64,000 nt of DNA, taken from a virus. The notes under the pieces were generated by a model. That model was not told the DNA's origin and ran no database searches. It was given only the letters and a program-made list of their open reading frames with translations. A program made the position numbers and the translations under genes. Positions 10,899-32,051 of the stretch are shown in pieces (the stretch's first letter is position 1; each line of letters starts with the position of its first letter). The DNA lies in IMG/VR virus record IMGVR_UViG_3300035670_000049, positions 32,001 to 96,000 of that record; one strand, 5' to 3'.

Positions 10899-11255
10899 TC
10901 ACCATTCGCCGCTCCGCTGAATCTCTGCAAAGAACATTCTAACCGCAGTGAGCATCTTATCAGCACGCGGGTCCGCGTAGTCAATCATTCGGTCGGCCAA
11001 TTCCATCAGGTCCATCATAAGGTCAATCTGGCGATTCGTGGGCCGGTAGCGCTGATGCAGCACAACATATCCCGGACCATACAGTGACAAGTGAATCCAC
11101 CCGCGCGCCTCTAGATCATTCGGGTCCTCGTGGATGACGAGATAGGCTACATCATGATGACCCATGCTGGGGACGTAGTGCTGGCGGCCAGCAGGATCGA
11201 TCCACGAATCGCACAGGGTCGGCTCTGAAAGAATCTCGCCCGGTTCGTGCTGCAT
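10899..11255 (-). CDS. Hypothetical early protein (monocistronic cassette, GC-rich)
   Basis: RBS, own promoter, 5' hairpin and terminator. Confidence 0.75.
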   Translation of the reverse strand: MQHEPGEILSEPTLCDSWIDPAGRQHYVPSMGHHDVAYLVIHEDPNDLEARGWIHLSLYGPGYVVLHQRYRPTNRQIDLMMDLMELADRMIDYADPRADKMLTAVRMFFAEIQRSGEW

Positions 11256-11299
11256 CTCACTGCTCCTTGCTCTTGCTATCGCCTGTTGGCGATGCCAAG

Positions 11300-11348
11300 A
11301 GCATAATCGATTCGACTACCCTATGTCAACAAAGCTAAGGAATCTTAG
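11300..11348 (-). promoter_or_regulatory. Promoter TTGACA-N18-TATGCT with operator CTAAG-N4-CTTAG upstream
   Basis: Direct sequence. Confidence 0.75.
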
Positions 11349-11636
11349 CTTTGCAAGGTTAGAGCGTTATTGCGTGAAAGCGCAATCGTTGCACATGCAA
11401 CTACCAGGATTGGGCCTTGCCTGTACATACCCTAAACAGAACGGAACATGGAGTATGGTATAACAGAACTGAACGGCAATCGAATTCCTGTACATACACT
11501 ATACACTATAGTACAGTACATCAGTACACATTCATGCGCCCATGAATCAATCTGCGTTCCATTGGCTCAAATCGCAATTATTAAGATTTCTTAATAAAGC
11601 TAAGATATCTTAATCCAGGTTCTCAATGCACATGGT

Positions 11637-11668
11637 GATAGGGCAGGGTTTCTGTGCCCTGCCCTATC
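11637..11668 (-). terminator. Hairpin terminator after the 11681-11956 gene
   Basis: GATAGGGCAGGG/CCCTGCCCTATC 12-bp stem. Confidence 0.65.
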
Positions 11669-11680
11669 CTCTAGACTTGA

Positions 11681-11956
11681 TTACCGATTGCTATCGATCA
11701 CCAGATCGACGTACTCGGTGTACGTCATGCCCTGCGGCAGCACGGGCCGGATTGCGCTGATCTGGGAGAAGAGATCGAGAGCCGCAGTGTACTCGCCACG
11801 CACGATCAATTGATCGTGGAGAAGGTTCGACATGTAGGAATCGACCTTCTCTTCCTTGGTTCCGTTCGACTCCCGAAACAGATCGACTGCCGTGGGGATC
11901 GAATCCACCAGAACCTCGGTGGGGGCGAGCATGAGCCAGAACTCATACCCGTTCAC
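11681..11956 (-). CDS. Hypothetical early protein (monocistronic cassette, GC-rich)
   Basis: Purine-rich leader, own promoter and terminator. Confidence 0.75.
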   Translation of the reverse strand: MNGYEFWLMLAPTEVLVDSIPTAVDLFRESNGTKEEKVDSYMSNLLHDQLIVRGEYTAALDLFSQISAIRPVLPQGMTYTEYVDLVIDSNR

Positions 11957-12026
11957 TTTTCTGCCTTCCTTCTCTTCCTTCGGGATCGGTCCCGATTGCC
12001 TATCAGATCATCGATCTGATGTGATC

Positions 12027-12072
12027 ACTATAGCGAGTAGCACGCTATCTGTCAATAGTACCTTTGTCACAA
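12027..12072 (-). promoter_or_regulatory. Promoter TTGACA-N17-TATAGT with upstream TTGTGAC element
   Basis: Direct sequence. Confidence 0.8.
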
Positions 12073-12458
12073 TCGAAAGTGACCTTTGGGGAAGCTCGGT
12101 GCAGAGCATAAACTCATACCAGCGCACTCATATATCCTAGCCAAAGTCTACTAATCTGGTAGACTTACCAAGGGATTGCGGGCATGGGCTAATCATATAC
12201 TATATCACTAGTATATAAACAGGAACAGGAATGAAATACTAATCTAAACAGTATTCGATTGTATATCCTATGCGCCCCATTCATAGTCGAGTATCCATTG
12301 GCTTGCGTGTCAATTCTGATCGCCGCTCCATTGGCTCAAAGCTAAGATTTCTTTATTTAGCTAAGATTTCTTTATCCAGGATTAGAACTGAACGGATATT
12401 CTAATTCAATTCGGTATCTTTATTCGCCAGCGAATTAGCAGGGACTAAGGGAATTAGA

Positions 12459-12839
12459 TTACTTGGACTTGGCGGGCTTCTCGGGCTCGGGCTCGATAAC
12501 CTCGGGCTCGGGCTCGGGATTCCGCAGGGCTTCCAACTCTGCCGCGATGCTATCCGCATCGAGTCCCTGCGCAGCGGTCCGTCCGCGCTTCCCCTCGGGA
12601 AGTGTGAGCGTCCCTGCATTCAGGTCGAGTGCGAATCCATCCGCCAGCGCATCGGACTTGTCAATGTTCTTGGACGGGATCGAGAGTTTATCCTTGCGGA
12701 TCACCTTGCCATCCGCATCGGTTTCGGTGGAGTAGAAAACTCCGCTGACCGTGTAGAGGCGCTCGGGATTCCGCTCGGCGGTCTTGCCCGTGGGGCGGGT
12801 GACTCGCATCCGCTCCACCAGATAGGTGACTAGTGCCAT
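12459..12839 (-). CDS. Early protein A (LTLPEGKRGRT family, acidic PE-repeat tail)
   Basis: RBS AAGGGAG; clear paralog of 13354-13647; flanked by inverted repeats. Confidence 0.8.
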   Translation of the reverse strand: MALVTYLVERMRVTRPTGKTAERNPERLYTVSGVFYSTETDADGKVIRKDKLSIPSKNIDKSDALADGFALDLNAGTLTLPEGKRGRTAAQGLDADSIAAELEALRNPEPEPEVIEPEPEKPAKSK

Positions 12840-13353
12840 TGTAGGCTCCCTTCGGCTAGTCCCCTAGTCCCTGCTATTCACTTGGTAAGGTGCTGGCCGG
12901 TGGTTCCATGTCCATCCGACATACAGAACTATATCCTCCGCGTAAAAAACTCGATAGAGCCATAGGTCCCAAAACTTTGTGACCTTTGGCCCTTGACAAG
13001 CGACGAGCTTTGTGCTAGGGGGGCCAGGTTGCGTGGTTGCGCAAGTACGCAATTGTTGCATGCGCAGCTAACTACCCCCACCCTCCATTGGCTTCCCTCC
13101 CCCATGTGGATATATAAGTGAATCAGTATACTTATATAGAACTGGATGTAATATGAAATCCAATAGTATAACAGTAACTGGATTGAAATTCAAATTCGAT
13201 TATAGAACACATCAAATTATGTAATGCGTAACATAAATGATACGTACTCCATTGGCTCAACATTAAGAACAGGTTAAGAATTCTTAATCAAATATTAATA
13301 TATAAGTGAATTAGTAATGTTAAGAGGAGAAGCGAGAGTTTAAGTTAGAGAAT

Positions 13354-13647
13354 TTACTCCTTGCGCAAAGAATTCAATTCCTTTGCGATATCGTCTGCGG
13401 TTAGGCTAGCCATTGCGGTTCGGCCCCGCTTACCTTCAGTAAGAGTAAGAATACCCTTATTGATATCGATAACCGTAGCCTTATCGCGTGCTTCATCGAA
13501 AGTAATTACCTTCGATGTGATGCTAAGCGGCTGCCCCTTATCGTTAGCAAAGACCCCGAAGATTGTGCAAAACCTATCGGGATGCTTTTCGGCCATCTTG
13601 TCGGATGGCTTAACGACGCGCATCTTGGCGATATGGTAGGTCGGCAT
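13354..13647 (-). CDS. Early protein B (LTLTEGKRGRT family)
   Basis: RBS AGGAGGTG before ATG 13647; paralog of 12459-12839; flanked by inverted repeats. Confidence 0.8.
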   Translation of the reverse strand: MPTYHIAKMRVVKPSDKMAEKHPDRFCTIFGVFANDKGQPLSITSKVITFDEARDKATVIDINKGILTLTEGKRGRTAMASLTADDIAKELNSLRKE

Positions 13648-13765
13648 ATTTATCACCTCCTTTCATCACAGGTCATGTCCTGTGTTAGTCAGACGGTGTA
13701 AATTCTCGCCTCTCGCTCTCGCTTCTCTTCTCTTATCTCACCGCCTCCTTGCCGGTGGCAAAGCC

Positions 13766-13813
13766 ACTATACAACCTGAAGAGTCAATTGTCAAGCATGT
13801 TAAGGTTTCTTAA
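13766..13813 (-). promoter_or_regulatory. Promoter TTGACA-N17-TATAGT with operator TTAAG-N4-CTTAA upstream
   Basis: Direct sequence. Confidence 0.8.
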
Positions 13814-14551
13814 CCTAGGCTAGTTTAGCTCAGGTTAAATTGTGCGAGCAATTACCCTCATCAATGCCACAGCTATATAGGTACTGATAATCAAATACAT
13901 ACTATTCCCTGGCCCGCTATGTAACTGGAACCCAAATGAAATTCAATACCTATATATTGTCCGTTGTATATCTAGGTATCGTACCAGATAATGTCGCCAC
14001 TCCATTGGCTGCACGCCCAGATCAGGATATTGCCTCTATTGGCTCAAATATAATTGAAAACATTTTTTAATTGTAAATACGCCCCTGATTTGAGCGTCAC
14101 TCCATTGGCTTGGGCAATAAAAGTGTCAATTCCCTATATATGGCGATATAAATATTAATAAAAAACTCGCTATGTAACAAGCTTCCTGATGAAATTCGAT
14201 GCCATAAAATAAAGGGGCTAAACTCCTAATATATCTAGGAATTTAACCCCATTTTGTGCTCAATACCTATGTATTTATGAGTGTATACCTAGGTAACTTG
14301 GCCTTTTTTATGCTTGGCAGTTGTTCTTAAAGATCAATTACTTCTATCTATCCCTATATATAGATTATATGTATTTATTATATTATCTACTTGCGCCCGA
14401 ACTTTCGTCAGATACAAACATTACAATGATTACTAGAATTGCCAAGAATATCAACCACTCCATCTGATGCACCCCCTTCTAGAAACTGCTATCTATCATC
14501 CCGACTGTGCGGTATCAAGTATAGCATATCAGATGGAGTAGGTTCAACTCG

Positions 14552-14830
14552 CTACTGTTCTGCCTTAATAGTAAAGAGGAGACTTCCCATCATTGTTTTG
14601 ATTTGACTTTTAATCTCTTCATGCGGCCAACCGTAGTATTCATAAAGAGCCACGATTTGCTCAGGATAGATCAGATATAAATACGGAAGCTCTGGACTTC
14701 CCTTATTGATCATCTTATCAAGGAAGCGTAGCACCCAACAATTAGTCCACTCATATTGGGTGCCGCCTCTGTCTGCAAGAATAGCCCCAATGTTAACTGT
14801 ATCATACTTATTCATCATTATAGATTCCAT
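14552..14830 (-). CDS. Hypothetical protein, last gene of the leftward early array
   Basis: Coupled ORF. Confidence 0.6.
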   Translation of the reverse strand: MESIMMNKYDTVNIGAILADRGGTQYEWTNCWVLRFLDKMINKGSPELPYLYLIYPEQIVALYEYYGWPHEEIKSQIKTMMGSLLFTIKAEQ

Positions 14831-15222
14831 CCATTTTCTTTTGCGGCCAGGAATTGTTCCTTGGTAATAGGTGTCATATCATATACATGAGTATCACCTA
14901 GTTCACCCTCTGGAACAACTACTGAATAAGCCCTACCAAAGCGATATCCATTATCATAATTGGCTTTGGCATCCTCCTTCTCCCACTCAAGTTCACCACT
15001 ATCAATATCCTCGTATACTGGATCAGAATAGATTTCTTCTTGGGTCATAATGTAGCCAAAGATTTGAATAATCTCACCGTATCCAGTATCCCATTCTCGC
15101 ATCCAATAATCACCATATGTCAATGCCTTCTGCTCTGGAGATGCGAGTTGATTAGCCCTTTCTGTGCCCCTACGAATAGCAGCAAACATTTCATCCACGT
15201 CATCAAAAGGAATAAATGTCAT
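14818..15222 (-). CDS. Hypothetical protein
   Basis: ATGA overlap; GRAYSVVVPEGELGDTHV. Confidence 0.7.
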   Translation of the reverse strand: MTFIPFDDVDEMFAAIRRGTERANQLASPEQKALTYGDYWMREWDTGYGEIIQIFGYIMTQEEIYSDPVYEDIDSGELEWEKEDAKANYDNGYRFGRAYSVVVPEGELGDTHVYDMTPITKEQFLAAKENGWNL

Positions 15223-30756: not shown

Positions 30757-30830
30757 ACTCTCGTACCTTAACAACCGAATATAGTCTGCGAGATTAGTTA
30801 GCCTAACCCAAAGGAAAGGAAAACACTCTG

Positions 30831-31433
30831 ATGGCTAAGGCTACAAATGGTCAGGCTGAGAATACTCGGTCTGCCACAATCACTGTTGGCGTTGAGAATG
30901 GTGCAGGAAATGCCGTTCTTGCCGCATGGCAGGGAATTTACCACCTATTCGGTGGGCGCGGAAACTTTGAGATTACACCCGATGGTGTGATTGTCAATGA
31001 TTTCAGCGTTGATGGGAAGTATGATCCTGAGCAGATTGCTAAGGATATCTCTCATCGCAATAGGCGACTTGATCTTGTTCCCACTTATCTGTGGGTACAG
31101 GGCATGGAGCCTGAGCCCTTTGCAGATGCCAAGGAAATGACCCAGTTTATGGTTCAGTATTTCCGGGGCTCTGTTGAGGAAGGTTCTTCTCGCTCTCCTA
31201 AGTACGTTAGGGATGCGGTTGCAACCTTTAAGGCAAGCCACAATCTTGCCAAAAAGCGTGGGCCTCGCAAGAAGATTTTCCGTGTGGATAATCTTAGCGA
31301 GATTGACGAGAATACTCTCGTTGGAGTTAATGCATCCGAACTCTCCAAACTCCGCGATGCAATTGAGAAGGCTCTTGCGACTGCTGCCACGAATACTAGT
31401 GGGGAGTCGCAGGAAGCCCCCGCTACAGTTTAA
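30831..31433 (+). CDS. Early protein C (200 aa, KKRGPRK motif), ORF enclosed by a 30-bp RNA stem
   Basis: RBS GAAAGGA; first gene of the rightward array. Confidence 0.85.
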   Translation: MAKATNGQAENTRSATITVGVENGAGNAVLAAWQGIYHLFGGRGNFEITPDGVIVNDFSVDGKYDPEQIAKDISHRNRRLDLVPTYLWVQGMEPEPFADAKEMTQFMVQYFRGSVEEGSSRSPKYVRDAVATFKASHNLAKKRGPRKKIFRVDNLSEIDENTLVGVNASELSKLRDAIEKALATAATNTSGESQEAPATV

Positions 31434-31505
31434 GTATCTGCTAACTAATCTCAACGATTATATTCGGTTGTTTCCAATTTCATCATACACTTTTAAGGGA
31501 ATACA

Positions 31506-31852: not shown

Positions 31853-32051
31853 TTTAAGGACAATAATTGTGGAAGATGTAATAGAATTTACTATTCTTTC
31901 GAGAAAGGCACATAAAGCGAAGAAGGAACATATTTGTCACGCTTGTAAACAGCCTATTATGCCCGGAGAGAAGTACCTTAAAGAAGTAGCTATTATTGAT
32001 GGAGACTTTAAAGAAATTAAATCTCATAGGAGCGAACCTTATTTTGAGTAA
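31830..32051 (+). CDS. Small Zn-binding protein (true start ~31870)
   Basis: KAKKEHICHACKQPIMPGEKY. Confidence 0.6.
   Translation: MASPFYFFLRTIIVEDVIEFTILSRKAHKAKKEHICHACKQPIMPGEKYLKEVAIIDGDFKEIKSHRSEPYFE

Follow-up and report, generated by a model that had tools for sequence, protein, structure and literature searches.

RNase III cuts the helix formed between the leader and the trailer of ribosomal RNA (rRNA) precursors, and phages use host RNase III to cut and stabilise their early messages, as in T7, and boxA together with host Nus factors. To our knowledge, long-range pairing between the 5' and 3' ends has been documented for only a handful of bacterial messenger RNAs (mRNAs). Leader-trailer helices are essential in pre-16S rRNA for active 30S subunits (PMC10250234), the Nus/SuhB complex on boxA draws the leader into a loop at RNA polymerase and promotes rRNA maturation (PMC4807359), and boxA also serves antitermination at lambda nut (PMC2724277). 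While boxA, leader-trailer helices, RNase III processing of phage messages and long-range pairing of untranslated regions (UTRs) are each known already, we found in the literature searched no description of their combination around phage protein genes with a host-specific boxA, nor of long-range 5'-3' pairing for the genes of DNA phages. Here we describe a stalk of this kind, formed by the two ends of the mRNA of a small phage gene, paralog B, which lies on the minus strand of a 64,000-nucleotide stretch of viral DNA (the window; positions 32,001 to 96,000 of IMG/VR virus record IMGVR_UViG_3300035670_000049). Positions are window coordinates unless marked genome.

By direct reading of the sequence, the 5' arm of the paralog B mRNA (13735-13698) pairs with the 3' arm (13357-13321) over 28 bp, in three helices of 6, 12 and 10 bp:

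13698..13735, minus strand: 5' arm of the stalk (reading, inverted-repeat search, fold and homolog comparison)
13321..13357, minus strand: 3' arm of the stalk (reading, inverted-repeat search, fold and homolog comparison)
13735-13730 with 13326-13321, minus strand: helix 1, TAAGAG against CTCTTA (sequence reading)
13727-13716 with 13338-13327, minus strand: helix 2, GAGAAGCGAGAG against CTCTCGCTTCTC (sequence reading)
13707-13700 with 13355-13348, minus strand: core of helix 3, 8 bp, GAGAATTT against AAATTCTC (sequence reading)
13699-13698 with 13357-13356, minus strand: AC/GT extension of helix 3, the whole helix being GAGAATTTAC (13707-13698) against GTAAATTCTC (13357-13348)

An AA bulge separates helices 1 and 2, and an internal loop of 8 x 9 nt separates helices 2 and 3. 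The arms are ~340 nt apart with the gene enclosed between them; the 5' arm begins ~24 nt past the predicted transcript start and the 3' arm begins at the stop codon, a TAA (13356-13354) that sits within the top helix, helix 3. The inverted-repeat search recovered both pieces of the stalk, and the stalk is present in both the minimum-energy and the centroid RNA folds of 13300-13760. This region folds to -168 kcal/mol, compared with -121 +/- 5.7 kcal/mol for dinucleotide shuffles (z = -8.25), and none of 100 shuffles was as good. The end-pairing had been proposed in a first-pass annotation made from the letters of the DNA, and reading, repeat search and fold now confirm it. The three helices at the stop codon also stood; the 26 bp counted there did not, since the AC/GT extension brings the total to 28 bp; the stop codon lies inside the helix.

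The paralog B protein has 14 close homologs and falls in a family of 57 clusters at 50% identity among 1.8 billion representatives, all from metagenomes. Twenty loci with family genes were fetched for comparison. The relatives carry the gene array C-B-A, of which the present phage lacks C. From these loci, 28 non-redundant gene copies were drawn from paralog groups C, B and A and from two distant lineages (L021 and L024), and 110 nt of each leader was tested for duplex formation against a 58-nt segment that spans the stop codon and continues past it. A stalk between 5'UTR and 3'UTR, 17-39 bp long and different in sequence each time, is present in every C, B and A copy as well as in L021 and L024. 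The cognate duplexes averaged -45.6 kcal/mol against -24.8 +/- 1.15 kcal/mol for permuted partners, with none of 20,000 permutations as good, and for 24 of the 28 leaders the cognate trailer was the best of all 28. Shuffled trailers with the same purine/pyrimidine bias averaged -22.8 kcal/mol. The position of the stalk is also kept: the stop codon lies inside the top helix in 10/10 B orthologs, and across the family the first base of the 3' arm falls between -3 and +13 relative to the stop codon. When ten B cassettes were aligned with MAFFT and folded with RNAalifold, a conserved 6-bp base helix was all that emerged; the inner helices were missed because the arms are too divergent for sequence alignment.

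The first-pass annotation had taken the keeping of structure while sequence was replaced as a sign of selection, had suggested a general strategy of enclosing mRNAs in stalks, and had named homologs from viromes and biased shuffles as the test. In the 28 copies the end-pairing is kept with independent sequence and exceeds the shuffled control, so that this test does not refute the proposal, and the strategy extends past the protein family (the 200-aa gene, L059 and L041, described below). The accompanying statement that the arms of paralogs A and B have no common sequence is true within the window; it fails across the family, where most A and B arms have a common base module. It is very probable, in our judgement, that the paralog B stalk is a selected RNA helix.

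The base module of most arms consists of (G)AACCTTAACAA, two free bases and GAATAG, and the 3' arm ends in CTATTC. A boxA within two mismatches, of the GAACCUUAACAA-NN-GAAUAG type, was found in 15 of the 28 cassettes, namely in all A-type and five B-type copies, compared with 1.5% of shuffled leaders. Each position of this motif matches at least one of two references, the E. coli rrn boxA-spacer (UGCUCUUUAACAA; PMC2724277) and the boxA of cyanobacteria (GAACCTTGAAAA; 10.1101/2021.01.08.426015). The motif ACCTTAACAA (with NN-GAATA) has two copies in the 120-kb genome, at the 5'-arm bases of paralog A and of a 200-aa gene; in the relative G001 the extended motif has three, at B, A and the ortholog of the 200-aa gene, and the reversed-pattern control gave none. 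Paralog B of the window matches AACCTTAACAA with no fewer than 5 mismatches, as many as shuffled sequences give, and its helix 1 (TAAGAG) aligns where the orthologs have the 3' half of boxA. Paralog B of the window has lost the boxA and base module and kept the stalk, with the position of boxA now paired as helix 1. That the stalk was kept after the loss of boxA argues that the stalk itself is the selected feature and the core of the function.

To place the module among bacterial sequences, the 17-mer GAACCTTAACAANNGAATA was scanned against one genome per prokaryotic species, a search in which ~70 loci are expected by chance. At least 120 loci were found, and 50 among the matches listed were from Chloroflexota. 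At the loci with rRNA genes the motif lies 33-90 nt 5' of the 23S or ~75 nt 5' of the 16S gene. Among the matches listed, it pairs with the trailer in 14 loci, across 3.0-3.24 kb or 1.57-1.71 kb, and all 14 of these rRNA loci are from Chloroflexota (Anaerolineae, Caldilineaceae, Chloroflexia, Dehalococcoidia). A 16S gene of Chloroflexia, for example, has the leader GAACCTTAACAACTGAATAGTGATAGGAAG and the trailer CTTCCTGTCACTATTCAGTTGTTAAGG, and a 23S gene of Anaerolineales has the leader GAACCTTAACAACCGAATAGGATCGA and the trailer TCGATCCTATTCGG. The phage A-type leader, GAACCTTAACAAGTGAATAGCAGGG..., has the same design as these Chloroflexota leaders with a different inner helix. The boxA and GAAUAG base of the relatives is, letter for letter, the boxA and base of the Chloroflexota 16S/23S leader-trailer helix, an identity that applies to the family and not to paralog B of the window. 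Four motif-bearing Chloroflexota genomes carry genes for RNase III and NusB, and the habitats of the runs with phage sequence (subsurface, wetland and freshwater sediment) fit Chloroflexota hosts. None of the sequencing runs listed for this stretch was an RNA run.

The scan also turned up loci of other kinds. A second class of the 17-mer, GAACCTTAACAATTGAATAGACCAAGACAAGAC, lies ~180 nt 5' of the Rfam pemK RNA motif (RF02913) at L132, L136, L138, L161 and ~30 further loci (Peptoniphilaceae and some streptococci) among the matches listed; it may represent the leader, of boxA type, of some Firmicutes mobile element. A boxA-GAAUA leader also stands before ordinary Chloroflexota genes, for example GAACCTTAACAACTGAATAGGAGGAAAAACATG at L201:7710-7745 in a Pelolinea metagenome-assembled genome, and the Chloroflexota loci L129, L141, L147, L154 and L232 carry the motif without rRNA genes. 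It may be that boxA leaders are used on cellular mRNAs as well in Chloroflexota.

The module is not confined to the A/B family. The 200-aa gene, with its coding sequence (CDS) at 30831-31433 on the plus strand, is unrelated to A and B and has a promoter, TTGACA-17-TAAAAC, a few bases 5' of its boxA:

30765-30774, plus strand: exact boxA ACCTTAACAA, running into the 5' arm at 30770-30802
31440..31472, plus strand: 3' arm of the stalk of the 200-aa gene (long-range inverted-repeat scan)

The G001 ortholog of this gene retains the boxA-stalk layout, and a canonical intrinsic terminator follows right after the 3' arm in this ortholog and in the C-type copies. The end of the 200-aa protein, KKRGPRKK ... 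ELSKLRD, recalls the A/B tail GKRGRT ... EL..LR, both resembling AT-hook-like basic patches; hhalign of the 200-aa protein against the A/B family showed no homology. Across the genome, a scan for long-range inverted repeats gave just three true cases, namely A, B and the 200-aa gene; a further pair at genome 22968/23641 lies inside coding sequence and was taken as chance. In other viral contigs, a boxA-GAATAT leader opens a 40-nt stalk around an open reading frame (ORF) for a 60-aa zinc ribbon (CxxC...CxxC) at L059:11868-12159, and another opens a stalk around a 284-aa ORF, followed by an intrinsic terminator, at L041:1594-2580. These two contigs have no proteins in common with the present phage in the fetched stretches. 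Of the 88 viral-contig matches to the motif, most lack a stalk and probably arose by chance.

We propose that the stalk is an RNA mimic of the pre-rRNA processing stalk, reused for early protein genes, with Nus loading where boxA is present, and we put the probability of this reading at roughly 0.6. While the annotation had read the stalk correctly, its basis on a host rRNA leader-trailer helix with boxA was not visible to that reading. By analogy with rRNA operons, it seems that the phage packages its early messages like rRNA precursors, and from the sequence matches the helix, which closes the monocistronic mRNA of paralog B, is most likely part of a portable expression module that this phage group copied from rRNA operons of its host phylum, for which Chloroflexota is the likeliest candidate. 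In order, this module would comprise a strong promoter, a small leader hairpin, an rrn-type boxA (GAACCUUAACAA), a stalk starting with GAAUAG, the cargo with a strong Shine-Dalgarno sequence (SD) and a 3' strand ending in CUAUUC. The boxA would load the NusB/NusE-NusA-NusG-SuhB complex onto RNA polymerase, and this complex would resist Rho and hold the 5' strand ready until the 3' strand emerges, so that transcription would be fast and Rho-resistant and the helix would be helped to close. The completed stalk (20-35 bp) would then be a substrate of host RNase III and be trimmed. Cleavage, or mere closure, would leave both mRNA ends in duplex, which would shield the message from exonucleases and from 5'-end-dependent decay and so add to its stability. 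The closed stalk would also put the stop codon next to the ribosome-binding site.

Several observations weigh against this proposal. A recognisable boxA is absent from paralog B of the window, from its closest orthologs and from all C-type copies; the stalk can therefore be kept without Nus loading. The distant homolog L023, which lies in an operon on a GC-rich contig, has no stalk and only a local 3' hairpin, so that the stalk is common in the family and not universal. The exact 18-mer was found in just 2 of 201 sampled genomes of the phylum, many of which may lack assembled rrn operons, and because of this the assignment of the host to Chloroflexota stays tentative. No RNase III gene was found in the phage genome. 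The conserved small hairpin 5' of the stalk would be removed by RNase III, and an uncleaved protective helix therefore fits this feature at least as well. Finally, tests of strand gave little: mismatches that would be G-U numbered 24 in the sense and 14 in the antisense orientation, which is not decisive, and the energies of the sense and antisense duplexes did not differ (p = 0.27).

The uncleaved helix would act like the 5'/3'-UTR interaction of B. subtilis hbs, hiding nuclease entry sites and the 3' end, and with the stop codon ~50 nt from a very strong SD it could also favour ribosome re-initiation on a pseudo-circular message. The conserved 5' hairpin, often with an SD-like AAGGAGG loop, would survive only if the stalk is left uncut; the B-type stalk is broken by its AA bulge and 8 x 9 internal loop, the stop codon is held within the top helix in all ten B orthologs, and in hbs there is the precedent of a 14-bp interaction that modulates RNase Y cleavage (PMC5737220). 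On the other hand, stalks of 17-39 bp are in the size range of RNase III substrates, those of the relatives are copies of rRNA processing helices, and a terminator hairpin, where one follows, already shields the 3' end. Ribosome recycling is also purely conjectural. We consider a helix that is never cut the main rival but unlikely, and favour the mimic of the processing stalk.

The strand tests bear on whether the arms act as RNA or as DNA. As DNA, they could bound a mobile cassette as its terminal inverted repeats, or an invertible segment, and be kept alike by recombination. The repeats flank exactly one gene, in a region that is mosaic in G+C and from which the present phage lacks the paralog C of its relatives, and the absence of a significant wobble asymmetry is in line with such an origin. 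However, there are no target-site duplications at the ends of the paralog B arms, and four DNA runs (contigs only) showed no joints or inversions at this stretch. The orthologs have no common arm sequence, and since the arms differ between orthologs there is no shared recombinase site. The gene has the same orientation behind its promoter in all 30-odd loci, and the borders of rearrangements and differences between relatives do not coincide with the arms. Both arms always lie between the transcript start and the terminator, and the rRNA helices with which they agree work as RNA. Since the strand tests are weak, the case for RNA over DNA draws mainly on this position and on the rRNA parallel, and we give very little credence to a role of the arms at the DNA level.

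The transcription unit of paralog B has the following further features:

13766..13794, minus strand: sigma-70-type promoter, TTGACA (13794-13789), 17-nt spacer, TATAGT (13771-13766)
13739..13757, minus strand: 5'-proximal small hairpin, CACCG/CGGTG (sequence reading)
13653..13662, minus strand: Shine-Dalgarno sequence AAGGAGGTGA, invariant among B orthologs
13354..13647, minus strand: CDS of paralog B, 97 aa, from ATG (13647-13645) to TAA (13356-13354), with the same start as in the homologs

The promoter has 11 of 12 consensus matches and a predicted transcript start near 13759, and a promoter of the TTGACA-17-TATAGT type stands 5' of all B orthologs. The loop of the small hairpin holds an SD-like AAGGAGG (13750-13744), ~100 nt 5' of the real start codon; such a loop was found in 5-7 of 10 B orthologs and resembles the STAB-SD 5' stabilisers. 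In the RNA fold, the SD and the start codon of paralog B are unpaired, in a loop outside the stems, as the first-pass annotation had noted of the ribosome-binding site. In hok mRNA the tac and fbi elements pair the 5' and 3' ends, and the same annotation had raised a hok-type fold-back as an alternative, in which the full-length mRNA would be locked by 5'-3' pairing and become translatable only after 3' trimming. The ends of the paralog B mRNA do pair in the fold, but the SD and start codon lie open in the loop. Furthermore, the product is a hydrophilic protein of 97 aa and not a membrane toxin of ~50 aa, no antisense promoter was seen near the 5' end and no overlapping leader ORF, and the arms vary freely in sequence. 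This alternative is not favoured and we regard it as scarcely credible.

The cargo of the stalk is a protein ORF with an SD, conserved as protein in the 57 clusters, and not an rRNA. No Pfam or PHROG family matched the paralog B protein, ESM Atlas gave no usable match for it, and no relative was found in 185,579 bacterial genomes. At the nucleotide level, blastn against the phage collection gave no match, and an Rfam scan of 11000-15000 at E <= 1 matched nothing. The AF2 (AlphaFold2) model (pLDDT, the predicted local distance difference test, 83) is a small beta-barrel with a C-terminal helix and a disordered GKRGR loop. Foldseek of this model against the Protein Data Bank (PDB) gave nothing at E <= 0.001, and the best VIA-align match had Z 3.3, with weak OB/Sm-like neighbours (Z 2-3.3) far below a trustworthy level.

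A small barrel with a basic loop and such neighbours could suggest that the stalk is a protein-binding platform, possibly for autoregulation by A, B and C, with the GAAUAG/CUAUUC base as the recognition site. The stalk travels with the A/B/C family, and the unrelated 200-aa protein has a similar C-terminal pattern (KKRGPRKK ... ELSKLRD). However, the conserved base is explained by its identity with host rrn leaders, the module encloses unrelated genes in unrelated phages, paralog B of the window has a stalk without the conserved base, and the fold matches are too weak to be trusted. We consider a platform of this kind improbable, and the mimic of the pre-rRNA stalk remains our preferred reading.

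The window belongs to a 120,336-bp virus record with terminal repeats, whose genes, among them those for DnaB, primase and a class II ribonucleotide reductase, are those of a large virulent phage. Paralog B lies in a row of small one-gene cassettes on the minus strand (~10,900-14,500), each with a near-consensus sigma-70 promoter, a structured leader, a strong SD and 3' structures. Paralog A lies in this array too; its protein is 44% identical to that of B (E = 1e-25), and the first-pass annotation had described the two as clear paralogs. The stalk of paralog A is formed by 12881-12860 pairing with 12452-12430:

12459..12839, minus strand: CDS of paralog A, 126 aa (ORF list and protein comparison)
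12892-12882, minus strand: boxA-like CACCTTACCAA, 2 mismatches to AACCTTAACAA, followed by the 5' arm GTGAATAGCAGGGACTAGGGGA (12881-12860)
12430..12452, minus strand: 3' arm of paralog A, TCCCTTAGTCCCTGCTAATTCGC, with one bulged A (reading, repeat search and fold)

The gene array is compositionally mosaic in G+C: three small genes including paralog A (10900-12900) have 55-63% G+C and paralog B ~47%, against ~38% for the genome. Where relatives have the third paralog, C (100 aa), the present phage has ~750 nt (13800-14550) with no convincing ORF, and in this gap lie three copies of the AGCCAATGGAG motif and, at 14250-14214 on the minus strand, a hairpin that resembles a terminator. The AGCCAATGGAG motif (GCC[AC]AT[AG]GA) has 8 copies in 11566-14109, all on the minus strand, and 3 in the remaining 120-kb genome; it is often followed after 20-25 nt by a GGGCGCAT-like box. 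It follows every cassette in the relatives too, and may serve as iteron, operator or processing signal.

AT-rich palindromes on TTAAG/CTTAA lie at 13797-13813, 13271-13290, 12345-12375 and 11580-11614. One of this type, GGTTAAGAAACCTTAAC, is directly 5' of the -35 element of the paralog B promoter and contains a boxA-like AACCTTAACA on DNA, and a TTAAGAATTCTTAA or AAGAAATCTTAGC palindrome lies downstream of each cassette; the TTAAG/CTTAA palindromes may be operator sites of a phage regulator. At some cassettes, including paralog A (12930-13010), a conserved module of ~45 nt, TGTCAAGGGCCAWWGGTCACAAAGTTTTATGAC..TTCGGCAC, stands in place of the TTGACA/TATAAT promoter. It was also seen 5' of A- or B-type genes in L004, L005, L009 and L010, and may be another promoter type or an operator. 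Elsewhere, the phage carries a Pfam-confirmed TROVE/Ro60 gene (genome 27400-30350, before the window start), and the region 3' of it has four tRNA-model matches inside a Y-RNA-like array, which showed no likeness to the stalk base. No RtcB was found in the phage genome.

It is possible, though we hold it as a tentative idea that falls somewhat short of even odds, that Chloroflexota phages carry a portable "pre-rRNA disguise", made of the host rrn boxA and leader-trailer helix, for their protein genes; phages of other phyla probably carry the same disguise with their own boxA. If this is true, the antitermination and chaperone complex of host rRNA, together with RNase III, would transcribe, fold and trim phage early mRNAs as if they were rRNA, and the copied boxA and helix base would reveal the host phylum of uncultivated phages, for example poorly studied hosts such as Anaerolineae. 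The end-pairing itself has dozens of independent compensatory versions of the stalk behind it and is tied to the host rRNA leader letter for letter. If the mechanism holds, it would represent a new phage route for taking over the rRNA transcription and processing machinery, and a compact natural design for stable and highly expressed bacterial messages.

Compared with known systems, the cassettes of the array are in some respects like the PeSL cassettes of T4-type phages (PMC2839356, PMC4122927), which also hold small early genes with their own promoters and flanking conserved motifs in a plastic region. The counterparts of those motifs in the present array are the TTAAGAAnTCTTAA palindromes and AGCCAATGGAG repeats and not the stalk arms, and the PeSL motifs are conserved local sequences, thought to mediate recombination, with no pairing across the gene and no covariation. 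The RNase III sites of T7 are local hairpins between cistrons, whereas the arms of paralog B enclose the gene, and lambda boxA acts together with boxB and the N protein, with no processing helix attached. In S. aureus icaR (PMC3868564), long-range UTR pairing within a bacterial mRNA likewise creates an RNase III substrate, but there the partner of the 3' UTR is the SD region and translation is repressed, while the phage stalk leaves the SD outside the helix. Another parallel is B. subtilis hbs (Braun, Durand and Condon 2017, PMC5737220), likewise a small gene, which is highly expressed, has a very strong SD and shows a long-range UTR pairing that affects nuclease access; it differs in that the pairing spans 14 bp, belongs to a single cellular gene, and has neither a boxA nor any likeness to rRNA helices, where the phage stalks have 17-39 bp and are found in a whole family and beyond. 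Unlike the rrn leader-trailer helix, the phage stalk has as its cargo a protein message of 0.3-0.6 kb with its own SD, the sequence of its inner helix is free, paralog B of the window has no boxA, and cleavage and Nus binding are putative. Like it, the phage stalk is a long-range helix formed by the flanks, which encloses a whole functional RNA and is kept by covariation, and in most members of the family boxA stands before or overlaps the start of the helix and is followed by GAAUAG, with a strong sigma-70 promoter just upstream.

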